From Halomicrobium mukohataei DSM 12286 (GTDB lineage Archaea > Halobacteriota > Halobacteria > Halobacteriales > Haloarculaceae), in assembly GCF_000023965.1 (NCBI RefSeq), contig NC_013202.1, positions 150,001 to 182,000 on the forward strand: a DNA stretch of 32,000 bases. Reading direction: 5' to 3'. The translations under genes were made by a program, and so were the position numbers. The notes beneath the pieces are model-generated. The model searched no databases and was not told the DNA's origin. It saw only the letters and a program-made list of their open reading frames with translations. Positions 1,375 through 22,412 of the stretch are shown one piece after another. The number at the start of each line of letters is the position of its first letter. Position 1 is the stretch's first letter.

Positions 1375-2448
1375 GTGCGATCGGTCGTCGTCGCTCTCGT
1401 GTACGAGACACGAGCGACGGCCGACGGGGCCAGCCCAGAGACAGCCACTGTCGAGAGAGACGAGCCGGGGCCGGAGCTGTCGGTCGTCGTCGTCACCTAC
1501 AACGAGGCAGCGCGCATCGCCGACTGTCTCGACGCCGTGTTCGAGGCGTGTCGCGGCGTCGCCAGCTTCGAGGTGCTGGTCGTCGACTCGAACTCGACGG
1601 ACGGGACGGTCGCAATCGCAGACGACTACGACGCGACTGTCCTCCGGATCCCCGACGACGCGCTGACGACCCCCGGTGCGGGCCGCTACGTCGGCACGCA
1701 GCGGGCCCGCGGTGACGCCGTGCTGTTCGTCGACGGCGACGTGGTCCTGACCCAGGGCGACTGGCTCGTCGAGGCCCGAGAGACACTCGCGAGCGACTCC
1801 TCGATCGCGGGCGTCGACGGACACCTGAACGAACGCCAGACGGAGGCACCGACCAGCGTCGACTATCTGCACGGCGTCGCGCTGTACGACCGCGAGTCGC
1901 TTGCCGAAGTCGGCGGCTTCCACCCGTTTCTGACCGCTTGGGAGGACGTGGATCTGGGGTTCCAGCTGACGCTCGCGGGGTACGAGCTGTGCCGGCTGCC
2001 GACGGTCGTGGGCACTCATCCCGTCCCGGAGTCGTCGCTCGATCAGTTCCGTCGCTGGCGACGGGGGTACTACCGGGCCGGCGGCCAGGTCTGTCGCAAA
2101 GCCCTGCGCCGACCGGCGCTGTGCTGGCGGTGGCTGTGGTACTTCCGAGACAAGATCGCCACCACGGCCTGGCTCGGCCTGGGGGCGCTGCTCGCGGTCG
2201 TGCAGCCGCTGCTCGCTGCCGGGTGGCTGCTCGCGACGATCGCGGCCGCCGGACTGGTCTGTCAGCGGCTCGGCGTCGACGGCGGCCTCCGACGAGCGAT
2301 CTCGGCGATACTGTTCCCGCTTGGCTTTGCCCTCGGGTTCGAGGCGGTCCCCGATCGGGACGCGTTCCCGCTCGACGCCGTCGAGACGGTCCGGCGCGGG
2401 TCGGTGTGTGACGCCGAGGCCTCGCCCCGTCCCTCGCCGACAGACTAA
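1375..2448 (+). CDS. Family 2 glycosyltransferase with C-terminal membrane helices
   Basis: Motifs LSVVVVTYNE, VLVVDSNSTDGT and LFVDGDV (DxD). Hydrophobic C-terminal third. GTG start at 1375 is the only start offered, so the start is uncertain. Confidence 0.8.
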   Translation: MRSVVVALVYETRATADGASPETATVERDEPGPELSVVVVTYNEAARIADCLDAVFEACRGVASFEVLVVDSNSTDGTVAIADDYDATVLRIPDDALTTPGAGRYVGTQRARGDAVLFVDGDVVLTQGDWLVEARETLASDSSIAGVDGHLNERQTEAPTSVDYLHGVALYDRESLAEVGGFHPFLTAWEDVDLGFQLTLAGYELCRLPTVVGTHPVPESSLDQFRRWRRGYYRAGGQVCRKALRRPALCWRWLWYFRDKIATTAWLGLGALLAVVQPLLAAGWLLATIAAAGLVCQRLGVDGGLRRAISAILFPLGFALGFEAVPDRDAFPLDAVETVRRGSVCDAEASPRPSPTD

Positions 2449-2552: not shown

Positions 2553-3884
2553 TCAGTTGTACGGTTTCGGCCGCAGTCGGTCGTAGACCGGATAGAGGTA
2601 CTCGTAGAACTCGTAGGGCGCGTTTCGCGCGCCCACGCGAAGCAGCTTCACCCAAGCGGGCTGGGTCGACCGCTCGACGTTGTCCGCGAAGTCGTTGTCC
2701 GCGAGCCACGCGAGGAACTCTTCGGTACCGTCGTAGTCGGGCGGTTCTTCGACTGGGAGGTGGGCCTGGATGTCCTCCCAGTAGTACCGGACGTGCTCGT
2801 CCAGCGCCCAGTCGTTCGTCTCGAAGCGCTCGATGGCGTAGTCGTACCACTCCTCGTCGACCCGGTAGCCGAAGTCGTTGGGATCGACGCCGGCCACCAA
2901 GAGTCCGGTCGCCGTCCGGACGCACTTCTCACAGCGGTTGCAGTTCCCGCCCGCGTCGTCGTACGTACAGGTCCGGATCACGAACGGGGACCCGGTTTCG
3001 CGGGCGTAGTCGGCCAGCAGTTCCAGCTTGTCCTGGCGCGTGATATCGAAGGCATCGTGGTGGCCCCGCGTGCCAGCCCACCGGACGTTGTCGTCGATGT
3101 CCGGATGCGATCCCCACGGCGATCCCCGACCCGGCCAGGTGATCGACTCCAGCTCGAACCCGTCCCAGTGCGTCGAGCCCATGTGGACGACGCCGTAGCC
3201 CTGACTGTAGGCCAGCGGCGCACAGACTCCGAGCAGCCCGATGCCGTGGCCGACGCCGCTGTACCACCCGCCGTCCGTGTGGTGCTTGTAGTGGACGTTC
3301 AGCATCGTGTGATCGAGGAAATCAGAGATGTCCGCCGTGACGCCGTGGGTCGGACAGTCCTCCCGCTTCGCGAATCGGTCCACGTGACCCATGGCCCGCT
3401 CCCAGCGATCGTCCTCGTCGACGCCGATCACCCAGCCCTGGATCGCGATCAGCGCCGGGTCCGCCTCGCGATGTCGGACGTACGTCGCGAGCGAGTCGAC
3501 ACCGCCGCTGAACAGCTGTGCCGTCCCCTCGAACGAACCCGGTTCGTGACGGTGCTCCGTGATCCGCTCGGCCCGGATCGCCCCGCCGTCGATGAACGCG
3601 GGGTACATCCGCGACAGCGTGTCTCGGACCGCATCGAGGCTGTCGAGGAACTGCCGGTCGACGGCCTCGACGACGACCGTGCTGTCGGTCGCCCACGCGA
3701 CCGGACAGACCTGTGCCAGCACCGGAATCGTCGCCACTCCGAGGGGCACCTCGCTTACGTCCACATCGTACGACACAGAAAACGTCGACCTGTCGAAGAA
3801 ACGCCGCAGATCCCGCGAGTACTCGACGGTGTACTCGATCGAGCGCTCCCCGATCGACACGTCCGCGACGACGATCTCAGACAT
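2553..3884 (-). CDS. QueC-like PP-loop ATP pyrophosphatase family protein with N- and C-terminal extensions (443 aa)
   Basis: SGGVDS PP-loop at aa 126-131 (nt 3492-3509). Cys cluster C306-x8-C315-x2-C318-x2-C321 (nt 2922-2969) lies about 180 aa downstream, matching the spacing I recall for the QueC zinc site. ATG at 3884. Confidence 0.7.
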   Translation of the reverse strand: MSEIVVADVSIGERSIEYTVEYSRDLRRFFDRSTFSVSYDVDVSEVPLGVATIPVLAQVCPVAWATDSTVVVEAVDRQFLDSLDAVRDTLSRMYPAFIDGGAIRAERITEHRHEPGSFEGTAQLFSGGVDSLATYVRHREADPALIAIQGWVIGVDEDDRWERAMGHVDRFAKREDCPTHGVTADISDFLDHTMLNVHYKHHTDGGWYSGVGHGIGLLGVCAPLAYSQGYGVVHMGSTHWDGFELESITWPGRGSPWGSHPDIDDNVRWAGTRGHHDAFDITRQDKLELLADYARETGSPFVIRTCTYDDAGGNCNRCEKCVRTATGLLVAGVDPNDFGYRVDEEWYDYAIERFETNDWALDEHVRYYWEDIQAHLPVEEPPDYDGTEEFLAWLADNDFADNVERSTQPAWVKLLRVGARNAPYEFYEYLYPVYDRLRPKPYN

Positions 3885-4075
3885 CCGTTACCTCCCGCCC
3901 CGGTCGGCGTCTGTCAGTTCCCTGCGTGCTCCGTTGATCGGTCATCCACTGCCAGCCAGGGACGGTCGTGGCTTAGTTACGAGACGCCTGCCGGCCGCTC
4001 GATCCCTGGGTAGGAACAGGCTGACGGGCAGTGAGAAGGGTCACTGGAAGAACGAACGTCGGCCGTCGAGGGCAG

Positions 4076-4930
4076 CTACCCCTCGGTGTGGTTGTCGTAG
4101 AACGAGACCGAGAACGCCGACCGGAACGGTGTCAGGACCAGCTGCGAGAGAAGCGAGTAGACGACGATCCCGCCCTGGGCGAGGAGCGTCGCGCCCAGTC
4201 CACCGGTCTGCGTTGCATCCATCGCCGACGCCGAACCCATGCCACCGGAACCCATGCCGCCCGTGAGGATCGGGACCAGGAAGAGACCAAACACCGGTGC
4301 CGCGACCAGCAGACCGATCACGAGGTTGATGACCCCGAACCCGAGCGCCTCGAGGATGTTGTTCAGGACGACGCTGACGCTGTTGCGGAAGCCGTCGACG
4401 ACGCCCACGTCGTCGACGACGATCGCAGTCGCGTAGAACTGGATGAAAAACATCACCAGCAGGAAGAAGAGTACGAGCCCGGCGATCAGGACGATCGAAA
4501 CGATACCGAGACCGCCCAGCATCGCGTCACTCGTCCCGCCAGTTCCGCCGTCCGCCATGGCCATCGCGCCGAAGCCGACGACGAAGATCGCGACGATGAA
4601 GGCGATGATTCCGTAGACGAACGAGAAGACAGCCTGAATCAGGTTCCCGATTAACACGGGGGCGTACCGATCCTTGCCGACCTTCTTGAACGTCTCGAAG
4701 GAGGTATCTCTGACCCGTCCCTCGTAGGCCATCGCCAGCAGGCCAGCGATGACGAAGGGCGTAATGAAGAACGTCACTATCTGAAAGAGCCACGGAACGA
4801 TCGGGATTCCGAACGTCGAGAGGGCAGTCTGGGGGAGTACGATCACCGCGTACAACGCCCCGATCGCGAACAGGATCGGGTTCCGGCGCAGTACGCCGAA
4901 CGATTCGACGAATGATTTGATCGTCGCCAT
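4076..4930 (-). CDS. Polytopic membrane protein, function unknown
   Basis: Start taken at MATIKSF (ATG 4930). Six or more long hydrophobic segments and Gly-rich loops (GGTGGTS, GGMGSGGMGS). Same strand as the QueC-like gene, 190 nt upstream of it. Confidence 0.75.
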   Translation of the reverse strand: MATIKSFVESFGVLRRNPILFAIGALYAVIVLPQTALSTFGIPIVPWLFQIVTFFITPFVIAGLLAMAYEGRVRDTSFETFKKVGKDRYAPVLIGNLIQAVFSFVYGIIAFIVAIFVVGFGAMAMADGGTGGTSDAMLGGLGIVSIVLIAGLVLFFLLVMFFIQFYATAIVVDDVGVVDGFRNSVSVVLNNILEALGFGVINLVIGLLVAAPVFGLFLVPILTGGMGSGGMGSASAMDATQTGGLGATLLAQGGIVVYSLLSQLVLTPFRSAFSVSFYDNHTEG

Positions 4931-5037
4931 ATCAACCAAGCCGCAAGACACCTACAAATAAATTGATATCGGAGATGCACGCCGGCGAGCGCGGAGCCGT
5001 CGAGGGGAGGACGGACGCGTCGTCGGCAACGAGATGG

Positions 5038-5382
5038 TCAGCGCCGGTCGGACCTGTGGACAACGATGAATTCGGGCAGATACCCGATCGTATCAGCAGT
5101 CATCGCTGTTGCCATAGACGTGGAAACGCTGCGGATCGACAGTAGTCGTCGTCTCGATGTCGATCTCGTAGTACCGGGCACCCTCAGTGTCTCGGCGGCC
5201 TCCCGCCTCTGCCGAACCGTCAGATCGTCGCGGGCCAACACCTCGCGGATTCGCTCGTCGATCCGCCGGGAGAACCCGGCGGACTGCACGAGCGCCGTCG
5301 TCTTGTTGCAGTGCCAGCGCTCGGCGGCCTGCTCGATCGTCTCTGTTCGGTGCGCGTGCGTGCCGTCGCCGGGGATTCGCAT
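5038..5382 (-). CDS. Hypothetical island protein, paralog of 11122..11322; C-terminus probably frameshifted
   Basis: 39 of 48 residues are identical to the second copy over WHCNKTTALVQSAGFSRRIDERIREVLARDDLTVRQRREAAETLRVPG. The conserved YEI(D/E)I continuation is only readable in the adjacent frame, which would end at 5093. Confidence 0.45.
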   Translation of the reverse strand: MRIPGDGTHAHRTETIEQAAERWHCNKTTALVQSAGFSRRIDERIREVLARDDLTVRQRREAAETLRVPGTTRSTSRRRLLSIRSVSTSMATAMTADTIGYLPEFIVVHRSDRR

Positions 5383-5705
5383 ACCCGCCGCCCGTGAATA
5401 TGCCGGTAAATAGTGGTCTGCTCGGGTAACTCGAAGCCCGATTACGGATAAAGATCGCTACGGCCCATACCCATCACGGCTCGATCACGCCGACGGCCCA
5501 ACCCGATCGATCGTGAGTATGCACACACCCAGTTCGCGCTCGTGTGCATATGAGGATGAACGGATTTCTCGACGTGCGAGCCCTTGGGGTTAACAATTCA
5601 GACCCAAGCTTTGTTCTATTTCCACTATCATCAGATATGCTTCCACTTTTACCCCGGTTTGCGAACCTTCTTCAGCCTCCCACACGAACCGATTGTTAAT
5701 CTAAA

Positions 5706-6353
5706 ATGCCATATTACGGAGACATATCCGGTGATTTCCGGAACCTTCTCAACGAAGATTGTGAGGTGGTGGTTGTGGCTGTCGTTGGCGGTACTCATCA
5801 TGATTGTTACCGATGTCCGAAGAGAGCGGTTCGTAATGCACCGCAGATGGATGAGGCAAAATGGTATGATATGAAGACAGTTGAAAAGAGACGGTTCATG
5901 GAATGTTTAGGCGAAAATTCGCCACCACTAGAATTCGGATATGCAGTCTTTGAGTTAGACGACTTCACCAATCTGAGATCTCATTATAAGCTATTCCAAG
6001 ATGTTTCATTCCCTCCCATTTGGGATATCGCCATTCGAGGCATTGCTTATACTGAGATCCTATACGAGCTATCCGGAGACACCAATATCGAGTTCTATCC
6101 CGACCAGTTTAGATCGGGTGTACAGACAGACAAGCTTTGTGAAGTGATCGAAAACCGTCTAAAAAAGGCAGAGATCGAATGTGTATCGTCTGAACAAGTA
6201 GATGGTGTACAAGCGGCAGATTGCTTGGCCGGTGCTGTTGCAGAAGAACAGAAGGGCGGAACTCCCTGGCTAGAACACACTAATGCTGAGTCTCAAATAG
6301 CGGAATGTTCAAGTTGGACACTGATAGAACTGGAACGTCTTCTCGTCTCTTGA
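5706..6353 (+). CDS. Hypothetical protein in AT-rich islet (possibly DUF3800-like)
   Basis: 215-aa ORF with normal amino-acid composition in DNA much AT-richer than the flanks. C-terminal VQAADCLAGAV resembles the Q-x-AD-x-x-A motif I associate with DUF3800. Weak assignment. Confidence 0.55.
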   Translation: MPYYGDISGDFRNLLNEDCEVVVVAVVGGTHHDCYRCPKRAVRNAPQMDEAKWYDMKTVEKRRFMECLGENSPPLEFGYAVFELDDFTNLRSHYKLFQDVSFPPIWDIAIRGIAYTEILYELSGDTNIEFYPDQFRSGVQTDKLCEVIENRLKKAEIECVSSEQVDGVQAADCLAGAVAEEQKGGTPWLEHTNAESQIAECSSWTLIELERLLVS

Positions 6354-6615
6354 GAACCGGCCCGTGATTGGCCTCCCACCCACTCGCGTGCGATAGACAG
6401 AAACCAAGCGAATTTCTGCCACGACGCACGCTGAGGTGCTGTTCGCACCCCTGCAGGGTCATCGACCTTTCACGGCGTTATCGGTGATTGAACGTAGTGT
6501 CCTCACAGTGCTAAATCTTGTGGCTCGTCGATCGGTCAGTGAAATTAGAACAAAACTCCAGATATGCTATGCAGCAGGTATCGTAAAGGCACTTTGTATC
6601 CGAATGGAATTCTGA

Positions 6616-7335
<720 letters not shown>

Positions 7336-7381
7336 TAGTGATCTTCTCATCTTTGTCGATATTGCTTAAACTTGTTCATAG

Positions 7382-8431
7382 TTATAGCTCAAAGAAATTG
7401 CGTCGCTGCTCTGCTTTCTGGCGATCGTTGCGCCGGTCGTAATGCTTGTCGAGAATCTCCTCGCTCGCGTTCATCCGATCGGAGACAAGCGACCGATCTT
7501 CGTCGGCCAGCCGGTGCGCAGTCACCCGTCCACTCCGAACGTCGTGGGGCGAGCGCGACGACGGGCACTTGCTCATCTCAGAGTAGTGGGTCCACTCACA
7601 AGTGTCCGGATCTTTGTCGTGGGGACACTCCTCTCCGCGCCAACATGGGGGCGAGACTCGGTAAAGCGTATCCCGGCAGCACGACCGCGACACCCGGCCG
7701 CTCTTCGTCGTCACCAGCGGCGCACGGCCCTGATCGTCGGTCTCCTTCTCACGTGGACCGTCGATGTAGTCCTTCAGAATCTGGGCGACGTGGGGGCTGA
7801 TCGCGTTCCATCGCTCGCCCTTCTCCTTGTTCTTGAGCGGGGTTCCCTTGTTCGGACGATGGACGAAGTGAACCGCCGGCCCATCGGCACCGGGACGGTC
7901 GCCGTCGAGATCGCAGTCGCCCACGTCAAGCGCGCGAAGGCCACCGGTCCGGCACCCGGTGTGCCAGAACAGCAGGACGATCACGTGTCGGCGGCTGGCG
8001 TACTCGTACCGTTCGAGCCAGTCCAGTATTTCGAGCGCGCGGTCCGGGTCGGGCGTAGATTCACTCACGTCCTGTCCCGGATTGATCTTCGGCAGCGGGA
8101 CCTGCTCGTACAGCGCTTCCGGCACGGCTTCGATGTCGCCACAGAACCGGAGGAACGCCCGAAGCGTCCCCATATCGCCGCGAAGGGTGACGGTCTTCAG
8201 TTCTTTGCCTTCGTCGGAATAACCACCCTCACGACGCCAGACGCGATAGGCGTACAGGTCGCGCCCAGACAGTTCGTTGAGGTTCGCGATACCTTCCTCG
8301 TCGCACCACTGGATGAAGGCCTGTAGTCGGTAGTACTGGCCTTGGAGGGTCTGTTCGGTCGCATCGTCTCTGGCCTCGATATACAGATCTACAGCCTCGG
8401 AGGGCGACAACGGTTCGAGATCGTCGCTCAC
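7382..8431 (-). CDS. Tyrosine recombinase / phage-type integrase
   Basis: N-terminal SAM-like core-binding region. Catalytic contexts HTGCRTGGLRAL (Arg), SPHDVRSGRVT (H-x-x-R) and ILDKHYD (Tyr). GTG start overlaps the upstream stop as GTGA. Confidence 0.9.
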   Translation of the reverse strand: MSDDLEPLSPSEAVDLYIEARDDATEQTLQGQYYRLQAFIQWCDEEGIANLNELSGRDLYAYRVWRREGGYSDEGKELKTVTLRGDMGTLRAFLRFCGDIEAVPEALYEQVPLPKINPGQDVSESTPDPDRALEILDWLERYEYASRRHVIVLLFWHTGCRTGGLRALDVGDCDLDGDRPGADGPAVHFVHRPNKGTPLKNKEKGERWNAISPHVAQILKDYIDGPREKETDDQGRAPLVTTKSGRVSRSCCRDTLYRVSPPCWRGEECPHDKDPDTCEWTHYSEMSKCPSSRSPHDVRSGRVTAHRLADEDRSLVSDRMNASEEILDKHYDRRNDRQKAEQRRNFFEL

Positions 8432-8688
8432 TCGTCGTCACCCCCGTCGAGATCGCGGTCGTACGGACCGACCGGCGTTACCAGCCGGACCTGTTCACGT
8501 TCGCGAAGGTTACCGGTCTTCCGGTCGTGCAGCTCGTGAAACTCGCCATCGACGCCCTCAGTGCGGGCGCAAGAGGCACACCAGAAGTGGTGGTTGGTGG
8601 GCTCCCAGGAGCGGTGGCCGCGGGGACACACGAATCGCCAGCGATCGCTACGACTCTCAATTCGGACGGTCTTCTTCTTCTCCAACAT
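8428..8688 (-). CDS. Small zinc-ribbon protein co-transcribed with the integrase
   Basis: Start taken at MLEKKK (ATG 8688). CPRGH...CASC cysteine pairs. 4-nt overlap with the integrase start. TATA-like CTTTTACC lies about 30 nt upstream. Confidence 0.5.
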   Translation of the reverse strand: MLEKKKTVRIESRSDRWRFVCPRGHRSWEPTNHHFWCASCARTEGVDGEFHELHDRKTGNLREREQVRLVTPVGPYDRDLDGGDDE

Positions 8689-8715
8689 ACCCAGTCGAAA
8701 CCGACAGAGGGCATG

Positions 8716-8757
8716 GTAAAAGGAGCGAGTCTTATCCGTGTGGTGAAAGTGAAAGTG
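8716..8757 (-). promoter_or_regulatory. Putative promoter of the zinc-ribbon/integrase operon with tandem hexamer repeats
   Basis: The reverse complement of 8716-8723 reads CTTTTACC, 28-35 nt upstream of ATG 8688. GTGAAAGTGAAAGTG (8743-8757) lies just upstream. Confidence 0.3.
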
Positions 8758-9072
8758 ATCGATTCGTCGCCCCGTCCCGCCGAAATAGCGATTTCGGCCG
8801 GTGAAAGTAAAACGAGGGCGCGGGCGGTCGGTCGTGCCACCTGTGTTAAGGCGGGAGGCTCGTCTCGTAGTCATGTGTTCGCTCGCAAGAGCGGCACCCC
8901 GGCCGACGGACATGGGCGTCGGCCACCGACTCTTTCTCTCGGACCTGCTCGCCGAGGGCCGGGTCTGTCGCTCTTGGCTCGCCAATTGTGACGACCTGAC
9001 TTAAGTTTTGATGCACGTATCGTAGTTATAGAATGCACAAAACGTGTTCTAAAAATCGTCACCGGATCAACT

Positions 9073-9354
9073 ATGAGTGATTCATCAGACAGTCAAAACG
9101 AAATGCACCGTCGGGTTGAATGGCTGAAACCCTCTGACCGGGTGATTGTGGCTGAGTTAGCAGAGTATGGCGGTTGGATGAAGCCCTCGTCACTCGCCCT
9201 CAATATTTCGTATACACGTCGCCATATCGCTCGACGGTGTCAGGTGCTGGCTAAACACGGGTTATTGGAGCGGCATGACGAAACGGCAGGTTATCGAGTG
9301 ACAGAACACGGTCACCAGTTCCTACAAGATAAACTAAATGAAGACGATCTCTAA
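9073..9354 (+). CDS. Winged helix-turn-helix DNA-binding protein (MarR/PhiH1-repressor-like)
   Basis: 93 aa. LKPSDRVIVAELAEYGGWMKPSSLALNISYTRRHIARRCQVLAKHGLLER fits a wHTH layout. Divergent from the integrase operon across an AT-rich spacer. Confidence 0.7.
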   Translation: MSDSSDSQNEMHRRVEWLKPSDRVIVAELAEYGGWMKPSSLALNISYTRRHIARRCQVLAKHGLLERHDETAGYRVTEHGHQFLQDKLNEDDL

Positions 9355-9438
9355 TGTGGGGTGCAGTTCCACCATCAGATCCTTTCGAAGTGCGGGACAA
9401 CACATAGATTGAAGATGTCTGAGTGATTGCCACAAGTC

Positions 9439-9945
9439 GTGAAGCGACGAACATTTTTCATACTCAGCATCGAGATAACTATCGCTCTCACCGGGATCGC
9501 AACATTGGGCGCTGTCGTTGTCTTCAGCGATATCACTGAGCCATCGGAGACCAGCCCACAACAAGACACACAAACATCTCAGGGGACTCCAACACCAGAG
9601 TCAAACTCTGAAAATGAGATCACAGTGCGGTCCCCAGAACCCGTTTCTACACCAGCCCCAGAGATTGCAATAAATGCCATGCAGGCCGAGGGTGGAGAGG
9701 GGTACCAGCTCGAAGCAGGGGCAAATACTTGGGGCGCAGCGGATTCTATTGCAATCGCATATAATGGTGAAGAAATTGAACGTTTAGCGAGTGGGGAAAC
9801 GGAGATCATTGCGTCTTCAGAGTCAGGTACACATGATCCACTTCCGAAAGGGGCAGTGGTTGTCGCTTACGCAATTCACGGAGACGACAGAACAGAACTA
9901 CTTCGTTGGGAAGTCAAATCTGGTGGAACATCTAACACGAGATAG
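9439..9945 (+). CDS. Secreted or membrane-anchored protein, function unknown
   Basis: A GTG start at 9439 gives MKRRTFFILSIEITIALTGIATLGAVVVF (signal/anchor), followed by a Ser/Thr/Pro/Glu-rich linker. AT-rich DNA. Confidence 0.55.
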   Translation: MKRRTFFILSIEITIALTGIATLGAVVVFSDITEPSETSPQQDTQTSQGTPTPESNSENEITVRSPEPVSTPAPEIAINAMQAEGGEGYQLEAGANTWGAADSIAIAYNGEEIERLASGETEIIASSESGTHDPLPKGAVVVAYAIHGDDRTELLRWEVKSGGTSNTR

Positions 9946-10010
9946 ACGACGGGCCTTGGTTTGTAGACGGTCAGGATTGAATCAGCCTTTCAGCATTAGA
10001 TCTGACAGCT

Positions 10011-10019
10011 AAATATAAA
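10011..10019 (+). promoter_or_regulatory. TATA-box-like element for the 10045 gene
   Basis: AAATATAAA is centred about 30 nt upstream of ATG 10045, which fits a leaderless transcript. Confidence 0.35.
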
Positions 10020-10044
10020 CCAATAGCAATTCTGGAACTGCACA

Positions 10045-10563
10045 ATGGCAGCAGTCTCGAAATCGGAAACTAAAGTCCTTGATCCGCACATCCCAAAGGG
10101 AGAACAGTTAATCGAAGCCTACAGTGGGAACGAGAAAACCGTCGCCGTGACGGACCGCCGAATTATCGATCTCTGGCATCACGAAGACGACCGGAGCCAG
10201 GAGACAGAACTTCGGAGTACCCTGCTCACCAACGATTACATCGTCGGGACCGAGTACGAGCGCGAACAGGAATCGAACACTCCCGATCTGGAACGTCTCA
10301 TCGGATTTCTGCTCGGGGTGTGTGGCGTCGGTGGAATCCTGTACGGGCTCGACGGCACGGGAGGGGCCATCTTCGGCGGCTTTGTCCTGCTGGCCCTCAG
10401 CGCGCTCATCATCTACCTCACCGACACCACGGAGAGCGGGGAAGTGGAGATCACTCTCTACCGAGCTGGAGAAGTCCCGAATCGGACGTGGACGTTCCCG
10501 AAAGGCGAGACGGGTGTTCCGCGGGCGATCTCCGAGCAAGTCGCTACGTTGCACCGGCCCTGA
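10045..10563 (+). CDS. Membrane protein with bacterial-PH (YdbT/DUF304-like) features
   Basis: GEQLIEAYSGNEKTVAVTDRRIIDL resembles the bPH N-terminal strand pattern. Central Gly-rich double TM segment (LIGFLLGVCGVGGILYG...FGGFVLLALSALIIYL). Confidence 0.6.
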   Translation: MAAVSKSETKVLDPHIPKGEQLIEAYSGNEKTVAVTDRRIIDLWHHEDDRSQETELRSTLLTNDYIVGTEYEREQESNTPDLERLIGFLLGVCGVGGILYGLDGTGGAIFGGFVLLALSALIIYLTDTTESGEVEITLYRAGEVPNRTWTFPKGETGVPRAISEQVATLHRP

Positions 10564-10608
10564 ATCGACGACCGAACGCTTATGCCGCCGTTTCACGTAT
10601 CACCTCCC

Positions 10609-10866
10609 ATGGCAAGTGCAACGCGAGACGACCGTACCGACGGCGTGGTGTTCGAGCAGGAAGCGGACGGGAGCATCACCGCCAAGGACCTCGAAACGGG
10701 ACTGGCCCGCGGCGGTGACACTCGCGCGGAAGCGCTCGCCCAGCTCGCGGAAGTTCTCGAACTCGAAGCCGGTGGTGGGGAACCGGTGACCGACGACGAT
10801 CTCGAAGCGATGGGCCTCGATCCCGACGACGAGGGTGACGAAGAACTGCCGGACTTCATGCAATAA
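10609..10866 (+). CDS. hicB: HicB-family antitoxin (short form)
   Basis: VVFEQEADGSITAKDLETGLARGGDTRAEALAQLAEVLEL fits the HicB N-domain pattern (partner-binding fold ending in TxxEAL). Lies immediately upstream of hicA. Start taken at ATG 10609. Confidence 0.7.
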   Translation: MASATRDDRTDGVVFEQEADGSITAKDLETGLARGGDTRAEALAQLAEVLELEAGGGEPVTDDDLEAMGLDPDDEGDEELPDFMQ

Positions 10867-10872
10867 CTTCGG

Positions 10873-11118
10873 ATGGTGAGGACGACGTTCTCTGGCCGCG
10901 AGGTAGTGAAAGTGCTGCGTAACCACGGCTTCTCTCCGAAATCACGAACCGGGAGTCACGTCCGGCTCAGGTACGAACATCCTGAGACTGGGGAAGTCCG
11001 TAACGTGGACGTGCCACAGCACGACGAAATTCACATCGGAACGATACGCTCTATCGCTGACCAGTGTGGAGCCAACGACTTCGAAGCGTGGTGCGAGTGG
11101 ATCGACGAGAACAGTTGA
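10873..11118 (+). CDS. hicA: HicA-family mRNA interferase toxin
   Basis: 81 aa. SGREVVKVLRNHGFSPKSRTGSHVRLRY...VDVPQHDEIHIGTIRSIADQCG matches the HicA/YcfA pattern, including the GSH motif. Confidence 0.85.
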   Translation: MVRTTFSGREVVKVLRNHGFSPKSRTGSHVRLRYEHPETGEVRNVDVPQHDEIHIGTIRSIADQCGANDFEAWCEWIDENS

Positions 11119-11121
11119 GCG

Positions 11122-11322
11122 TCACTTCTCGACAGCCAGACGTTGAGCGATCTCGATCTCATAGGTACCGGGCACCGTCAGCGTCTCGGCGATCTCCCGC
11201 TTCTGCCGAACCGTCAGATCCTCTCGATTCAGTACCTCCCGAATTCGATCGTCGATCCGCCGAGAAAATTCAGCAGACTGCACGAGTGTCGTCGTCTTGT
11301 TGCAGTCCCAGAATCTCTTCAT
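11122..11322 (-). CDS. Hypothetical island protein, N-terminally replaced paralog of 5038..5382
   Basis: MKRFWDCNKTTTLVQSAEFSRRIDDRIREVLNREDLTVRQKREIAETLTVPGTYEIEIAQRLAVEK. DNA similarity to copy 1 stops near 11312. Confidence 0.45.
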   Translation of the reverse strand: MKRFWDCNKTTTLVQSAEFSRRIDDRIREVLNREDLTVRQKREIAETLTVPGTYEIEIAQRLAVEK

Positions 11323-11848
11323 CGGCGACGAGTTCAGTAGCAAGGCCGGCGGGAGCGGCAAAGATGGCTATCTTACTCGCCAGAAGATAGGGCCGCTGGT
11401 GTACAAGATCCGGAAGTACAACGGGCTCCTGATCTACATCGCCCACGACGAGAGTTCGATCCACCCGCTACTCTGGCGGCTGGGTGTCATCACCAAGAAG
11501 GTGAGCAAGAAGAAGGCCGTCGTCGCCGACCACGTGAGCAACGGCCAGCTCCGGGACAAGCGCTTCGAAGTCGAGGGCGTTCCGCCGACAGACTGGCGGT
11601 ACAACGACAAAGAAGCCTCTTCGTGGTCGTGGACAGACGAGGAAGATGGGGAAGAGCCCGACCCCGACGAAGTGGCCTACGACGTGGCACTCTGGACGGT
11701 TCGGGAGTGCAAGCAGGACGGACTGACACACCGAGAGACGGCCCAGTACGTCCCATTCGGAAAGTCGTGGGTCGGTGATCGGTGGTCCGAGATTCAGGAC
11801 GGGAAGCACAGCGGAGCCATGGACAGGGTTCGGGCGATAACCGCATGA
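11297..11848 (+). pseudogene. N-terminally truncated Zot-like/plasmid-virus type NTPase gene
   Basis: No P-loop is present. The ORF begins essentially at a Walker-B-like LFIGDE, followed by KIRKYNGLLIYIAHDESSIHP (like the Zot R-x-G...hhhh-Q/H segment). Its first codons are antisense to the neighbouring paralog gene. Confidence 0.5.
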
Positions 11849-11891
11849 CGACGCGCGTATGTCCGCGTGTCCGCGTCCATCGTCGACCCTT

Positions 11892-11953
11892 CACTGGCCC
11901 ATACCGCTGGGCCCGACCCTCCAGGTTCGGGCGTGGGCGCATGGGCGCGGTGT
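11892..11953 (+). repeat. GC-rich hairpin-forming leader element, copy 1 (upstream of the nuclease gene)
   Basis: CACTGGCCCATACCGCTGGGCCCGACCCTCCAGGTTCGGGCGTGGGCGCATGGGCGCGGTGT. Possible stems GGCCCA/TGGGCC and GCCCGA/TCGGGC. Repeated at 13218-13280. Confidence 0.6.
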
Positions 11954-12008
11954 TCTCGTCGGCAGAGGAGTGTACATATACAATCGCGCGACGAGCGCGT
12001 GATGCGCG

Positions 12009-12401
12009 ATGAGTCGCTCGCACAAGGCCAACCACTACGGGACGCTCGTGGAGCGCCAGGCCGCGGAGCGGTACAACCTCGAACTCGACCGGTGTAGCTG
12101 GCACGACGCAAAGCGATCGGACGGCACCCCAGTCGAGATCAAGGCTGCGATGCACCGGCACAGCGATGGGCAGCCTGGTACGTTCAAGCTCTACGATCAG
12201 TACCACGAGCAACTACGGGAAGCGAACGGGTGGTACGTCTTTTTTGTATACCGGGTTCGTGGACTGGGTGTGGAAGTTCTACGGTGGGAGATGGGTCACT
12301 CGTCACGACTGCCGAAATTGGTCTGGCATGGAGGTGGAGATCATCGGGAAGCCAAACAGGCGAAGATCGCGATCAGTCTTCTCACGCAAAACCAGAAGTA
12401 G
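12009..12401 (+). CDS. PD-(D/E)xK-like nuclease-fold protein (130 aa)
   Basis: WHDAKRSDGTPVEIKAA provides a D...E-x-K arrangement typical of restriction-endonuclease-like or resolvase-like folds. The C-terminal 38 aa are duplicated in the fragment at 13281-13397. Confidence 0.6.
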   Translation: MSRSHKANHYGTLVERQAAERYNLELDRCSWHDAKRSDGTPVEIKAAMHRHSDGQPGTFKLYDQYHEQLREANGWYVFFVYRVRGLGVEVLRWEMGHSSRLPKLVWHGGGDHREAKQAKIAISLLTQNQK

Positions 12402-12442
12402 AAGGCTACGTGCACGTAGGTCGGTTACGCACGGGGAGCTGG

Positions 12443-13075
12443 TTATGACACCAATCCCGGATCGTCACCCCAGAAGGGAATCCCAATGTGATCTGCGACA
12501 TCCTCGATCGCGTCGTCGGAAAACGGATGCTTCGAGACGATCAAGATACTGCCGTCGTCGAGTTCCTCGACTCGTGGGGCAGGCGCTGACAGGAGTGTAT
12601 CGCGTCCGATCTGCTCGACTTCTGTAGGTGGGTAGAGATCCAACCAGCTGATGAACCGTCGAGGTGACGATGGGTATCTACTGTCCGGCGTCGGCGCGGC
12701 CAGCGGTTGGTTCGGTGCGACCCCATAACACATGACTGGTGGACTCTCAATTGCTGAGTAAATATCTTTGACAGCCCCAATCAAAGATGCGAGATTGTCT
12801 GCTTCAGCTAGTTTGGTAGCATCGTCGAGTCGTCCTCCCTCTACGTAGAATGTAGCCACTGTTCCGTTCTGATGACGGCCTGGTGATGCAGTCGCTCGCA
12901 ATTCGATATCGAAGTCATTTCGAGCAAAGATGATACGGAGTGTACCGGTGAGGTCTACACCTTTTTCGAACAGTTCGTACTCGTTCTTCGACTCTGCGAT
13001 CTCGGCAGCAGTATCAATTATTTCATCCTCGTGGTCAGCCGGATACAGTAGATCAATGTGAATCGAGTCGGCCAT
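12443..13075 (-). CDS. Hypothetical protein (210 aa), acidic, no recognisable motif
   Basis: Clean ORF with ATG start and ordinary composition in a lower-GC cassette. Convergent with the nuclease gene across a 41-nt gap. Confidence 0.6.
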   Translation of the reverse strand: MADSIHIDLLYPADHEDEIIDTAAEIAESKNEYELFEKGVDLTGTLRIIFARNDFDIELRATASPGRHQNGTVATFYVEGGRLDDATKLAEADNLASLIGAVKDIYSAIESPPVMCYGVAPNQPLAAPTPDSRYPSSPRRFISWLDLYPPTEVEQIGRDTLLSAPAPRVEELDDGSILIVSKHPFSDDAIEDVADHIGIPFWGDDPGLVS

Positions 13076-13217
13076 CGTTATTCTCCCCCAGTGATGACGC
13101 TGACTGGGCTTCCAATCCTAAACCCTTCTACGTTATTAGCGAAGTGATAAACTTCATCGTCGATGGCAGCGTTGTCTGCAGTCCTTTCGCTCACGCGGAG
13201 GATGATAGTCGGCCTTA

Positions 13218-13280
13218 CACTGGCCCATACCGCCGCGCCCGACCCCTCGGGTTCGGGCGTGGGCGCATGGGCGCGGTGTC
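13218..13280 (+). repeat. GC-rich hairpin-forming leader element, copy 2
   Basis: Near-identical to 11892-11953 with a few substitutions and a 2-nt length difference. The GCCCGA/TCGGGC stem is retained. Confidence 0.6.
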
Positions 13281-13397
13281 GAAGTGCTACGGTGGGAGAT
13301 GCGTCACTCGTCGCGACTCCCGAAGTTGGACTGGCATGGTGGCGGTGAGCATCGGGATGCGAAACAGACGAAAATACCGGTTACAGAGCTTCGATAG
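13281..13397 (+). pseudogene. C-terminal fragment of a second nuclease paralog, fused directly to the leader repeat
   Basis: Reads EVLRWEMRHSSRLPKLDWHGGGEHRDAKQTKIPVTELR*, against EVLRWEMGHSSRLPKLVWHGGGDHREAKQAKIAISLL in 12009..12401. No start codon. About 320 nt are missing relative to copy 1. Confidence 0.6.
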
Positions 13398-13869
13398 CCC
13401 ACTGTTTTGAGATTCGGTTATCAGGACCTTAACTTAGTCAGAGTCGATCATGTCCGCACTTTTCGGAACGACAGCCACTGGGCGATTGAGATTTTCATGT
13501 GGCGGATAGTCGTGATCGCCGAAATGGATTTCATCTGCTCCGTTGAATCCGGTGACTGCGGCCGAGTCGACGAGCTAGCGTCCAGTGTGTCAGATGGAGT
13601 CGGCAACAGATAGCGAGTCAGAATCTGCTTTCGCCCTCCAAAGCCGACCCATCAATCGAAGGTCGGTTGTAAGAATTCGTCACCACTGGAGTCTGATAAC
13701 TGTGTCTTCAGCCTCAATCCCAGTGCCGTCTGCGGATTCAACAGAGCAGTCTGCGGTGTATTTTGGACAGGTGGCCTTAGCCACACGACGCGCCGGGGTG
13801 GGGTGAAAGGGTACGATATTGCCGCAAAAATGGTGTGTTGAACAGTGATGCCTCTATCCAGGGGGCGCG

Positions 13870-14368
13870 CTACCCCTTGGACCAGTCAGGCGGACAGCCC
13901 GCTTCCATCCAGGCTTCGAAGTCGAAGCCGTCGCGAGCTTGCTCCCAGCGGCGTCGTTCGTCGATCTTGTCGGCGGTACGGCGGCCGTTCGCGAACACGT
14001 TTCGCAGATCGCGGAACCGATCGCGGCCACCGTCGGCGTACTCGATGGCGTCGTACACTCCCGCTGGGCGTCGGACAGTGGCGTCAGATCCTCTTTGTAC
14101 TCGAAGAGAGACGACTGGTACCTCACCGCCAATCCCTCCCGAAGCACTCCGGATTCCCACAGAGCTGGTAGTGTGGGCGGTACGCGGCGATTGGAACGTC
14201 CGTGAAGTCCGCCTCGTCGCGAGTATCCGCTTCGGGACAGGCCGGGCGTGGCTCGTCGCTGTCGGGGTCCTGACGGTGCAGGGTGTCCGCGTACTGGGAG
14301 CGATTGCGGACGCCCTGGTCGGTGTCGAGCTGAGCGTCGGCGGTCGCGCGCTGGCTCACGCCGACCAC
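13870..14368 (-). pseudogene. Gene with two frameshifts abutting the proximal att repeat
   Basis: Protein-like sequence continues across three ORFs in three frames: 14123..14368 (...NPECFGRDW), 13854..14147 ([22 protein letters not shown]) and 13870..14160 ([19 protein letters not shown]...[10 protein letters not shown]). Confidence 0.5.
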
Positions 14369-14390
14369 CCCGTTTCTGCTCCTAGTTTCG

Positions 14391-14555
14391 CAGGACGGCG
14401 GCGACCCGGCACTTGTCCCACGTTCAACTCAGGATTTCGGGGGTGTTCGTGCGAAAGCAGATCGCCCAGTAGCGGGCTCGAAATGCACGTAAACACAGCT
14501 TTCGCTGTGTGCCATAGTTCGGTTGAAAATGGGATCCGCCCTCCCCGATTTGAAC
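14391..14555. repeat. Proximal att-like direct repeat (tRNA-Tyr 3' end plus about 145 nt of trailer)
   Basis: Partner of 7046-7207. The trailer includes a perfect hairpin ACACAGC-GAAA-GCTGTGT (read on the tRNA strand) that is imperfect in the distal copy. Confidence 0.6.
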
Positions 14556-14608
14556 GGGGGGCAAGTCGATCTACAGTCGACTGCTCTACCAGTCTGAGCT
14601 AAGGGCGG
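14535..14608 (-). tRNA. tRNA-Tyr (anticodon GUA), no intron, CCA not encoded
   Basis: Hand-folded cloverleaf: acceptor CCGCCCT/AGGGCGG with the C1-G72 pair typical of archaeal tRNA-Tyr, D arm GCTC/GAGC, anticodon arm GTCGA-CTGTAGA-TCGAC, variable TTGCC, T arm CCCCG-TTCAAAT-CGGGG, discriminator A. Confidence 0.95.
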
Positions 14609-14782
14609 TTGCACTCGAACGTAGCGCCGGTCCCAGACTTAACGGTTATCATTCTGTACGAGGGCGGGAGGGTCTCACAGCCACACCAGTCCGTCAGACA
14701 GCGACGGCGACGCCCGCGTAGTTGGACGGACAGAGACGAGACGCAAAACGGTGGCAGACGGGCGTCAGACGCCGCGGGAAGA

Positions 14783-15533: not shown

Positions 15534-15640
15534 ACGGCGCGCCACGCGGTGGATGTCCCGCCGTCGTCCGGCGATTACGCGGTGTAAAACGTGCGGTCGG
15601 CGTGTAAACGCCCGCCGTCTTACCGGGGAACGAGATAACT

Positions 15641-15829
15641 ATGGAGCGTGTGACACTACGGATTCCGAAGCAGCAGATCGAAGAGGTCGAACGAATGGTC
15701 GAAACCGGGGAGTACCCCAACCGCAGCGAGGCTATCAGGTCCGCTGTGCGCGAGATGCTCGCCGAGCAGGAGGGCGGGAAGGAACGACCATCCGAGAAAC
15801 GCGAGCGTCGCACCTACGTGAGGGCCTAA
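15641..15829 (+). CDS. cdrS: Small CopG/ribbon-helix-helix transcription regulator CdrS
   Basis: 62 aa. [40 protein letters not shown] is a classical RHH. Its stop lies 2 nt before the ftsZ start, matching the published cdrS-ftsZ2 arrangement in haloarchaea. Confidence 0.8.
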
Positions 15830-15831
15830 CG

Positions 15832-17025
15832 ATGCAGGACATCGTCAAGGAAGCCCTCGAGCGCGACGAAGCGGAACAACAGCAACTGTCCGACGCAGAC
15901 GTGGACGGCTTCGGTGACCCTCGGATCGTCATCGTCGGCTGTGGCGGAGCCGGTAACAACACGGTCAACCGTCTGTACAACATCGGCGTCGACGGTGCCG
16001 ACACGGTGGCGATCAACACCGACAAGCAGCACCTCAAGATGATCGAAGCCGACACGAAGATCCTCGTCGGCAAGTCCCTGACCAACGGGCTCGGTGCCGG
16101 TGGCGACCCCTCGATGGGCGAGCGCGCTACCGAGATGGCACAGGGCACGATCAAGGAAGTACTGGGCGACGCCGACCTCGTGTTCGTGACCGCCGGCATG
16201 GGTGGCGGGACGGGGACCGGTGCGGCACCGGTCGTCTCGAAGATCGCCAAAGAACAGGGCGCGATCGTCGTCGGCATGGTGTCGACGCCGTTCAACGTCG
16301 AACGCGCCCGCACGGTCAAGGCCGAGGAGGGCCTCGAACGGCTTCGCAACGAGGCCGACTCGATCATCGTGCTGGACAACAACCGCCTGCTCGATTACGT
16401 CCCGAACCTCCCGATCGGCAAGGCGTTCTCGGTGATGGACCAGATCATCGCCGAGACGGTCAAGGGAATCAGCGAGACCATCACGCAGCCGTCGCTGATC
16501 AACCTCGACTACGCCGACATGACCTCGATCATGAACCAGGGCGGCGTCGCGGTCATGCTGGTCGGCGAGACCCAGGACAAGAACAAGACCGAAGAGGTCG
16601 TCAAAGACGCGATGAACCACCCGCTGCTGGACGTCGACTACCGCGGCGCGAGCGGCGGACTGGTTCACATCACTGGCGGCCCCGACCTCACGCTGAAGGA
16701 GGCCGAGGGGATCGCACAGAACATCACCGAACGGCTCGAAGCCAGCGCCAACGTCATCTGGGGCGCGCGTATCCAGGAGGAGTACAAGGGCAAGGTCCGC
16801 GTGATGGCGATCATGACCGGCGTCCAGTCGGCGCAGGTGCTCGGCCCGTCCACCCAGAAGCAGGCCGACAAGTCCCGCGAAGCGATCCAGGAAGTCGGTG
16901 ACGACACCAGCTTCGACGCCAGCCAGAACGTCGAGGAGTTCGACGATCAGGGCGGCCAGAGCTACGGACACACCGACGGCGGCCGGGACACCAAAGAGAA
17001 GAACAACGGAATCGACGTCATCTGA
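15832..17025 (+). CDS. ftsZ2: Cell division GTPase FtsZ (FtsZ2 paralog by context)
   Basis: GCGGAGNN and tubulin signature [10 protein letters not shown]. Start at MQDIVKEAL (ATG 15832). The track ORF from 15553 is an upstream extension that overlaps cdrS. Confidence 0.95.
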
Positions 17026-21413: not shown

Positions 21414-22412
21414 TCAGACCGCTTCCAGCGCGTCCAGCAGATTGCACTTGCGACAGCGATCCCGGCCCGTCGGAGCCCCACAGTTCTCGCACTCGCCGAA
21501 GTCGGCGTCGCGGTCGTCTTCGCTACGGTAGGCCTCGGCGGCCAGCGCGGCGAGTTTCTCGTAGCCGGCCATGATCGAGTGGCGCGTGCCGGGGTGGTTC
21601 TCTTCGAGGCCGAGCATGAGGTCCTGTATCTCGCCGCGATAGGCCTCCTCGGCGTGGGGACACTCGGTGATGTGGGCCGGCAGCTCCTCGAAGCGAGCGT
21701 ACAGAGCGACCTCCTTTTCTGGGATGTCACGGAGTGGTTTGGCCCGCGGGATGTGCTGGTCGGTCTCGGGACGCTCTCGGTCGGCGGGTCCGTCGCCGTC
21801 GGCGTCGAACGGTCCCAGCGACGAGTCGAAGTGCTGGGCGATCTGGGTCACGTCGCCTTCGAGGACGTTCATCAGCGCGGTCTCGGCCTCGTCGTCGAGG
21901 TTGTGGCCCGTCAGCAGCTTGTCGGCGTCGAGTTCGTCGGCGTACTTCGAGAGGAGATCCCGACGAAAGACGCCACAGTACGCACAGGCGGCCATCCCCT
22001 CGGGATCGTCCTCGACGACCTCGTCCATGCGCACGTCGAACTCCTCGTCGTAGCTGACGACCTCGTGGCGGATGCCCAGGTCGTCGGTCAGCGTCACCGA
22101 GGCGTCGAGGCTCTCGTCGCGGTACCCCTCGATTCCCTCGTGGATCGACAGCGCGACGAGTTCGATCCGCGGGTCCTCGGCGAACACGTCCTGTAAGATC
22201 TGCGTGAGGACGACGCTGTCTTTGCCGCCCGAGAGCCCGATCACCCACGTCTCCGGGTCCTCCGGCGTGGCGTCGCGAGGCACCAGCCCGTCCTCGCGGA
22301 TACGGCGACGGACGCGCTTCTCGACGGTCCGACAGAAGTGCTCTTCGCACATGTGCAGCCCCGAGTAGGCCGCGTGCATCACCGCCGGTGCGCCACACTT
22401 GTCACACTCCAT
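21414..22412 (-). CDS. ncsA: tRNA 2-thiolation PP-loop ATPase, Ncs6/Tuc1 family (NcsA)
   Basis: N-terminal CDKCG...CEEHF zinc finger, SGGKDS PP-loop, C-terminal CENCG...CRKC zinc finger. 332 aa, as expected for the family. Confidence 0.85.
   Translation of the reverse strand: MECDKCGAPAVMHAAYSGLHMCEEHFCRTVEKRVRRRIREDGLVPRDATPEDPETWVIGLSGGKDSVVLTQILQDVFAEDPRIELVALSIHEGIEGYRDESLDASVTLTDDLGIRHEVVSYDEEFDVRMDEVVEDDPEGMAACAYCGVFRRDLLSKYADELDADKLLTGHNLDDEAETALMNVLEGDVTQIAQHFDSSLGPFDADGDGPADRERPETDQHIPRAKPLRDIPEKEVALYARFEELPAHITECPHAEEAYRGEIQDLMLGLEENHPGTRHSIMAGYEKLAALAAEAYRSEDDRDADFGECENCGAPTGRDRCRKCNLLDALEAV

Follow-up and report, generated by a model that had tools for sequence, protein, structure and literature searches.

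The gene considered here lies at positions 2553..3884, on the minus strand, of a 32,000-nucleotide (nt) stretch of Halomicrobium mukohataei DSM 12286 (contig NC_013202.1, positions 150,001 to 182,000 of the forward strand). We refer to this whole analysed stretch as the window. The open reading frame is complete, begins with ATG and encodes a protein of 443 amino acids (aa) whose start Met is the same Met as in homologues; it stands between a family-2 glycosyltransferase (GT2) gene and a gene for a DUF7847 membrane protein. A Shine-Dalgarno-like GGAGGT, 6 nt 5' of the ATG at 3884 (within 3885-3900, minus strand), suggests a leadered transcript, or a polycistronic one with the upstream DUF7847 gene. 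The translation contains an SGGVDS PP-loop, a predicted ATP/pyrophosphate-binding loop (aa 126-131; 3492..3509, minus strand), and a cluster of four cysteines, C306/C315/C318/C321 (2922..2969, minus strand), predicted to form a zinc knuckle as in QueC. The cluster, read from the translation as CTYDDAGGNCNRCEKC (aa 306-321, nt 2922-2969), has the pattern C-x8-C-x2-C-x2-C, which arose in 0 of 200,000 shuffles of the protein. By analogy with the QueC structure 3BL5, the metal it holds is probably zinc. From the PP-loop to the first Cys the distance is 180 residues, against 179 in Escherichia coli QueC, whose comparison sequence was validated against PDB entries 2PG3 and 3BL5. An earlier note on this DNA, made from its letters and open reading frames, had drawn attention to these two motifs at QueC spacing and to a length about twice that of QueC with a Trp/Tyr/acidic-rich tail. 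Both observations hold: relative to QueC the protein has an N-terminal extension of ~117 aa, 122 aa lie C-terminal of the Cys cluster, and aa 333-443 consist of 11.6% Asp, 11.6% Glu, 10.7% Tyr and 4.5% Trp.

We obtained an AlphaFold2 model of the protein from 42 homologues (predicted local distance difference test, pLDDT, 89.5; predicted template modelling score 0.89). From N to C terminus it shows an alpha/beta domain, a PP-loop core of five strands, the Cys knuckle and, last, a helical domain. The N-terminal domain (aa 1-112; 3549..3884, minus strand) is kept family-wide, is modelled at pLDDT 91-98, has no Pfam or PDB match and possibly binds substrate. The central PP-loop (adenine-nucleotide alpha-hydrolase) core, delimited from the secondary-structure order of the model (aa 113-300; 2985..3548, minus strand), has five parallel strands alternating with helices in a Rossmann-like arrangement, with the PP-loop after strand 1. 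The C-terminal domain (aa 322-443; 2556..2921, minus strand; modelled helices 319-437) is rich in Asp, Glu, Tyr and Trp and is modelled at pLDDT 84-96 to about aa 400 and lower beyond. Modelling the core alone (aa 112-345, trimmed 15-sequence alignment) gave a poor result, with a pLDDT of 50.7, which suggests that the core needs its outer domains, or else a deeper alignment. No transmembrane (TM) segment or signal peptide is predicted for the protein, consistent with action at the cytoplasmic face.

Foldseek searches with the model place the protein among PP-loop ATPases. The high-probability top matches in the PDB (0.96-0.98) are PP-loop ATPases only, among them MnmA, QueC, TtuA, NcsA, ThiI and ArgG (argininosuccinate synthetase), all with weak E-values of at least 0.035 and up to 0.3; asparagine synthase and carbapenam synthetase ranked low in the Foldseek searches. 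QueC 3bl5 aligned over 233 columns with a target-normalised TM-score of 0.58 and a probability of 0.96. Among the viral structures of BFVD, the top named matches were phage and viral QueCs (E 1.2e-3 to 1.4e-2, probability ~1.0, target-normalised TM-score 0.5-0.64), and E-values for PP-loop ATPases were as low as 2.7e-4. As modelled, the window protein has QueC as its nearest structural neighbour.

QueC is a single-domain enzyme of ~220-230 aa, with queD/queE linkage in about 30% of members. With QueC (PF06508; cluster 1 of the sequence similarity network, SSN) the window protein has in common SGGxDS, the Cys4 pattern, the separation of ~180 residues and the order of strands and helices in the core, and presumably also the chemistry, adenylation on a carboxylate; it differs in being about twice as long, with three modelled domains of which the N- and C-terminal ones are conserved. 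Canonical QueCs combine SGGxDS and the C-x8-C-x2-C-x2-C zinc motif with YxQxHxxE, VPxRN and YPDC, and Y35, R99 and Y131 in these three further motifs are essential by mutagenesis (PMC13329287). None of the three was present in any of the 111 family sequences examined. PF06508 gave no hit to the window protein at E<=1 and was touched by 11 of 40 relatives at sub-threshold scores only (E>=0.008). When the family was aligned by hhalign to a shallow, three-sequence QueC alignment, 25 columns covering the Cys knuckle only were paired, in register and with a probability of 17%, and Smith-Waterman scores of the core against E. coli and Bacillus subtilis QueC were not significant (z = 3.0 and 0.3). 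Searches of the PDB with the single sequence and with a 42-sequence profile returned nothing significant and no QueC. As the earlier note had remarked, the gene's neighbours are a membrane protein and a glycosyltransferase instead of que or tgt genes. No queD, queE or tgt lies within 10 kb on either side, nor did any of them turn up among those neighbours that received a label in the 80 related loci. The window protein shares the fold and metal-site architecture of QueC and lies outside the QueC family by the criteria that define that family. The description of it as QueC-like thus stands for the PP-loop, the Cys4 cluster and the nearest structure, and does not extend to family membership, given the missing substrate motifs and scores below the gathering threshold.

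The window protein has no hit above threshold among the Pfam, NCBIfam or PADLOC models, and the only recurring sub-threshold Pfam hits in the family are QueC (11/40) and DUF6395 (9/40). The DUF6395 (PF19932) match pairs aa 302-348 of the window protein with profile positions 37-81 (E 0.014). It spans the Cys cluster and the following helix, covers fewer than 50 residues and never reaches the gathering score of 25 bits.

We find that the protein belongs to a large three-domain family. A word-index search returned 361 homologues, and 493 relatives were found in the genome collection. A profile search of 1.84 billion cluster representatives yielded 5,772 matches at E<=1e-3, 3,161 at E<=1e-10 and 1,005 at E<=1e-30. 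The family ranges over Halobacteria, Methanobacteriales, Methanosarcinales, Thermoproteota and Bathyarchaeota, and in bacteria over Bacteroidota, Bacillota, Chloroflexota, Verrucomicrobiota and Actinomycetota. Its distribution across genomes is patchy; several genomes carry two or three copies, often in tandem, and tandem paralogues are common. Nearly all of the 150 cluster representatives listed are 400-450 aa long, so the length that had been called oversized is the norm within the family, although it remains large relative to QueC. The size of the family and its polysaccharide context are unannotated, and we found no description of it in the searchable literature: the 2026 survey of the PF06508 family does not describe it (PMC13329287), and literature on DUF6395 or on PP-loop proteins with pyruvyltransferase gave no published match. 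AglU (MMP1084), the threonine-attachment factor of Methanococcus, might belong to the family; no Methanococcus protein came up in a search that started from a Methanobacterium member. Adenylating PP-loop enzymes built on a QueC-like scaffold are, as such, already known.

Conservation was measured on a 40-sequence cross-phylum alignment. Invariant positions are P54, G128, R283, C306, N314, C315, C318, C321 and R323. Nearly invariant are Y39, W64, D76, F125, G127, D130, W207, G214, A222 and P223 in the N-terminal domain and core, and S259, D264, K286, E319, K320, T324, P335 and W369 later in the chain. Since these residues reach into both of the supposed extensions, both are conserved parts of the protein. 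A relaxed SGGxDS motif is present in 108 of 111 relatives, and the PP-loop residues G127, G128 and D130 and all four cysteines are kept from Halobacteria to Bacteroidota. The preserved loop thus includes its Mg-binding Asp. The family has conserved motifs of its own, W207-x6-G214, A222-P223, WGS259-x4-D264 and R283-x2-K286, which, judged by the secondary-structure order of the model, would occupy the loops that hold the substrate motifs in QueC.

The genomic surroundings of the family point to polysaccharide biosynthesis. We clustered the five neighbours on either side of the family gene in 80 loci from the genome collection and three earlier ones (83 in all, 72 assessable), with genes called by a simple in-house caller and every cluster labelled from what Pfam found in a single representative. 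At least one polysaccharide gene lay within five genes in 64 of the 72 assessable loci, and two or more kinds in 52. A Wzx flippase was found near the family gene in 28 loci, mostly directly upstream, a family-4 glycosyltransferase (GT4) in 27, a polysaccharide pyruvyl transferase (PS_pyruv_trans) in 24, mostly directly downstream, an NAD epimerase/dehydratase in 21 and a UDP-sugar 6-dehydrogenase in 18. Further recurrent neighbours include GT2 enzymes, EpsG/Wzy-like polymerases, polysaccharide deacetylases, hexapeptide acetyltransferases, GFO/IDH/MocA oxidoreductases and methyltransferases. In bacteria the family gene is packed tightly behind the flippase and ahead of the pyruvyl transferase, all on one strand and with operon-like gaps (median 6 nt from Wzx to the family gene and 16 nt from there to the pyruvyl transferase). 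The pyruvyl transferase, free or fused to GT2, is adjacent in at least nine separate lineages: Flavobacteriia, other Bacteroidota, Opitutae, Bacilli, an Acetobacter metagenome-assembled genome and Acutalibacteraceae (Clostridia) among bacteria, and Thermoproteota and two methanogen orders, represented by Methanobrevibacter and Methanosarcinales, among archaea. What the earlier note had taken for a stand-alone oddity is one member of a large family seated in such loci.

Natural fusions join the family domain to glycan-related enzymes. One member (P0170) has an N-terminal Acyl_transf_3 membrane O-acyltransferase, a second (P0249) a C-terminal ATPgrasp_ST domain, the 'sugar-transfer associated' ATP-grasp, and a third (P0221) a weak C-terminal PS_pyruv_trans match; three others (P0192, P0224 and P0179) carry N-terminal extensions of ~90 aa with no Pfam hit. 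As a separate observation, several of the polysaccharide operons at the Flavobacteriia loci L040, L045, L052, L055 and L059 encode, downstream of the family gene, an AMP-binding enzyme and proteins of ~79, ~481 and ~310 aa. This layout is reminiscent of a Dlt-like, carrier-protein-dependent esterification module, of which the AMP-binding member alone is annotated.

In a neighbour-joining tree all haloarchaeal members group into a single clade. In 21 Natrialbaceae loci (L007-L034, for example L033:7845-9647, minus strand) the family gene always forms a divergent pair with a gene for a ~600-aa membrane protein without Pfam match. With its roughly 12 TM segments and a soluble C-terminal domain of acidic character, it resembles a GT-C-type glycosyltransferase, polymerase or ligase. 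This protein may be the haloarchaeal functional partner. In Natrialbaceae the family gene is flanked by genes for beta-helix proteins and for several enzymes: one of the alkaline-phosphatase superfamily, a deacetylase, a WbpB-like oxidoreductase, an epimerase and a GT4. Halosimplex has tandem family pairs beside a GT4 and a UDP-sugar dehydrogenase, and a relative of 47% identity is convergent with a GT4 and lies near a flippase.

In the window itself, the GT2 gene (1375..2448, plus strand; Pfam Glycos_transf_2, E 8e-19; two C-terminal TM segments) is convergent, tail to tail, with the family gene across a 104-nt gap. This arrangement recurs in orthologue contigs at 87% and 80% identity, and orthologues of the window protein (78-87% identity) keep the convergent GT2 together with an S9 peptidase. 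GT2 is the only partner conserved in the window subclade. On the other side, 145 nt upstream and on the same strand, lies the gene for the DUF7847 polytopic membrane protein (4076..4930, minus strand; Pfam DUF7847, E 1e-46; 8 TM segments). Conservation of this neighbour, which the earlier note had proposed to examine, extends to the 87% and 80% orthologue contigs; the gene is absent from the 78%-identity contig and from all more distant relatives, and we rejected DUF7847 as a functional partner.

The fold class, the conservation of the ATP and Cys motifs, the extent of the family and its association with glycan genes lead us to propose, with moderate confidence, that the window protein is an adenylating glycan-tailoring enzyme with a QueC-like PP-loop core and a Cys4 knuckle. 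The suggestion already made from the sequence, a different use of the adenylation chemistry, fits this evidence. The catalytic scheme that we infer, including its amide-forming step and its substrate, is drawn from the enzymology of PP-loop proteins such as QueC, NadE, asparagine synthetase, argininosuccinate synthetase and TilS. ATP would be bound by the PP-loop, and a carboxyl or carbonyl oxygen of the substrate would attack the alpha-phosphate to give an acyl-adenylate and pyrophosphate; a nitrogen nucleophile, ammonia or an amine, would then displace AMP to leave an amide. The substrate would most likely be a sugar carboxylate, a uronic acid or ketal-pyruvate, on a lipid-linked repeat unit or nucleotide sugar, or alternatively a small carboxylic acid that becomes joined to an amino sugar, and the N- and C-terminal domains may together form the pocket that receives it. 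For the window copy, the enzyme's partner would be the neighbouring convergent GT2. Because the neighbouring and fused enzymes create sugar carboxylates or add small substituents, an amide-forming step before flipping is the most economical assignment. Carboxylate amidation in particular is a more tentative proposal than the general one. As is known for the PP-loop superfamily at large, asparagine-synthetase-like uronic-acid amidotransferases (WbpS type), NadE and Dph6 resemble the proposed chemistry in adenylating a carboxylate that ammonia or an amine then attacks. Unlike the asparagine-synthetase type, the window protein has no Ntn glutaminase domain, and the asn_synth model left a trace hit in only 2 of 40 members (best E 0.0087). 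The nitrogen would probably come from free ammonia or an amine, since the search for a glutaminase or for HisH/HisF partners found none. Products of the expected kinds do exist, since archaeal N-glycans contain uronic acids amide-linked to threonine as well as acetamidino sugars (PMC11407970).

Several observations weigh against this proposal. The source names of all members are either 'hypothetical protein' or an automatic 'QueC', and the function assigned here is an inferred one. Most Flavobacteriia have Ala in place of the last Ser of the PP-loop. Among the neighbours of the family, unlabelled ones included, no glutamine amidotransferase and no HisH/HisF partner was seen. The context of the window copy is thin: a single GT2 lies within 10 kb, where flippase, dehydrogenase and pyruvyl transferase genes are all missing. 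The nearest sister group, the 'stand-alone' loci L001, L002, L004 and L006, which the long branch of the window protein adjoins, has no glycan gene within five genes on either side. A pyruvyl transferase was present in no haloarchaeal locus, so the strongest bacterial linkage is not directly transferable to the window copy.

The alternative that survives best, although we consider it unlikely, is conversion of an N-acetyl to an acetamidino group on a sugar, in which a PP-loop amidotransferase acts on an amide carbonyl instead of a carboxylate. Enzymes of this type, WbpG, WbuX, PseA and AglX (TIGR03573; SSN cluster 5.2), are PP-loop proteins of O-antigen, capsule and N-glycan loci that put nitrogen on a sugar substituent. 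They share with the window family both the fold class and the surface-polysaccharide home: a setting of the WbpG type is seen in the same 64 of 72 related loci, the window copy lying beside GT2 only. WbpA/B/D-like genes, for 2,3-diacetamido uronic acids, also lie in the Natrialbaceae loci. Archaeal N-glycans do contain acetamidino sugars (PMC11407970). However, TIGR03573 and the other amidotransferase models matched neither the window protein nor any of 40 relatives at E<=1, and profile searches placed the protein with neither the asparagine synthetase-like nor the PseA/WbpG-like amidotransferases, a placement that had been raised at the outset as a possible refutation. The WbpG-type Cys motif, CxxC-x6-CxC, and the order of motifs differ from those of the family (PMC13329287), and the HisH/HisF-like partners that typically deliver ammonia in WbpG systems were not found beside family genes.

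Less probable still is a role without catalysis, in which the protein would be a structural subunit or scaffold of a complex that assembles glycans. The Ala that stands for the last PP-loop Ser in many bacterial members would agree with this, as would the fact that no nitrogen-donor partner was identified. Against it, the Gly pair and Asp of the PP-loop, the Arg and Lys after beta5 and several loop motifs show little or no variation from phylum to phylum, which argues for a preserved active site.

An RNA-modifying PP-loop enzyme of the thiolation or lysidine type, near glycan genes by chance, is highly improbable. MnmA, ThiI, TtuA and NcsA are among the best Foldseek E-values, but these matches are weak (E>=0.035) and restricted to the shared core, and Pfam detected no THUMP, PUA or other RNA-binding domain in the window protein or in 40 members. 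The linkage to polysaccharide genes holds in different phyla, its spacing is operon-like and fusions to glycan enzymes occur; the patchy, often multi-copy distribution is unlike that of housekeeping tRNA enzymes. A regular TtuA/NcsA-type thiolase is, moreover, already encoded in the window at 21414-22412.

We give scarcely any credence to a defence enzyme of the QatC/Cap9 type that conjugates a deazaguanine to a partner protein, a connection that had been raised from the sequence. QatC and Cap9 are QueC-family protein-deazaguanylating ligases of Qat defence and type IV CBASS, respectively; Cap9 is a minimal QueC core of ~185 aa that stands beside a CD-NTase and Cap10. Both reuse the QueC core for a non-queuosine purpose, as we propose for the window family, and QatC, at ~400 aa, has N- and C-terminal extensions round that core and lacks the QueC substrate motifs (PMC13329287), so that it matches the window family in length, extensions and motif loss. 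A provirus-like island 1 kb from the gene could be counted on the same side. The QatC zinc motif, however, is a different variant, C-x19-CGxCxxRR (PMC13329287). The hidden Markov model searches show no significant similarity and remain at noise level: the PADLOC QatC model (PDLC02214) gave no hit to the window protein and one among 40 members (E 0.055), and the NCBIfam QatC model (NF041925) no hit to the window protein at E<=1 and three among 40 members (best E 0.046). Neither QatC nor Cap9 appeared among the top 50 Foldseek PDB matches, and the family profile did not retrieve the Cap9 structure 9nto from the PDB. No QatA ATPase, QatB, QatD (TatD nuclease) or CD-NTase gene was seen in the window neighbourhood or in the 80 loci, and no TGT-like neighbour in the window; the context of the window family is polysaccharide biosynthesis. 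The island is unrelated to the gene, as the insertion is absent from an orthologous contig. Attachment of a nucleobase-like carboxylic acid to glycans, which might be imagined by analogy with QatC and Cap9, is very unlikely.

A functional QueC (7-cyano-7-deazaguanine synthase) with extra domains that supplies preQ0 for archaeosine is largely refuted: the two hallmark motifs at QueC spacing, the closest fold in both the PDB and BFVD and the QueC names given by some automatic pipelines would favour it, but the essential Y35, R99 and Y131 motifs are missing from all 111 relatives, no member among 40 passes the Pfam threshold (best E 0.008), the family profile retrieves no QueC from the PDB and hhalign pairs the Cys knuckle alone, several genomes hold two or three copies, often in tandem, and queD, queE and tgt are wanting nearby, here and in the 80 related loci, which also answers the earlier question of conserved que neighbours in relatives.

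If the more tentative proposal of carboxylate amidation is right, it would explain a carboxyl-amide decoration step for which the loci show no known candidate enzyme. Amide-type and carboxyl-derived decorations of surface glycans shape antigenicity, recognition by phages of their receptors, and charge. A concrete candidate for steps of this kind is the present conserved family, which in many polysaccharide operons stands between flippase and pyruvyl transferase. On a broader and correspondingly doubtful view, the QueC scaffold, already used in tRNA/DNA deazaguanine synthesis and in phage defence, may have been recruited once more, for widespread glycan-tailoring ligases (thousands of sequence clusters in Bacteria and Archaea) that adenylate a sugar-borne carboxylate before flipping and then turn it into an amide or couple it to an amine; this would be a further repurposing beside QatC, Cap9 and LarE. 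Recognising the family would also correct annotations, as the automatic 'QueC' labels would falsely imply a capacity for queuosine or archaeosine. For the window the message is modest: its copy is an ordinary family member paired with a glycosyltransferase.

Elsewhere in the window, a ~9.5-kb region beside the DUF7847 gene (5000-14610), with GC content down to 0.49-0.55, appears to hold one or more integrated mobile elements. A tRNA-Tyr(GTA) gene lies at 14535-14608 (minus strand), and a 14-nt exact copy of its 3' end is found at 7318-7331. A direct repeat of 157 nt (78% identity; 7051-7207 and 14399-14555), with the 14-nt copy, stands beside an integrase-like open reading frame without Pfam hit (7382-8431). 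Among the genes carried are those for a VP3-like protein (PF26064), a HicA toxin and a PDDEXK nuclease, besides two DUF7692 genes with which a second repeat is associated (5171-5317 and 11165-11311). An orthologous metagenome contig (L087) has no island, DUF7847 being joined there directly to CdrL-like, RHH and FtsZ-family genes; because that contig lacks the region, it looks like a provirus or island at tRNA-Tyr, possibly a composite one.

The second PP-loop protein of the window (21414-22412, minus strand; 332 aa) looks like an ordinary TtuA/NcsA-type tRNA 2-thiolation enzyme, with a TtuA N-terminal LIM domain and ATP_bind_3, and is unrelated to the gene at 2553-3884. A 490-aa tubulin/FtsZ-family protein with Tubulin and FtsZ_C domains is encoded at 15553-17025 (plus strand). 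In related contigs the FtsZ-family gene follows the RHH and CdrL-like zinc-ribbon genes, and this trio is kept beside the locus in close relatives.

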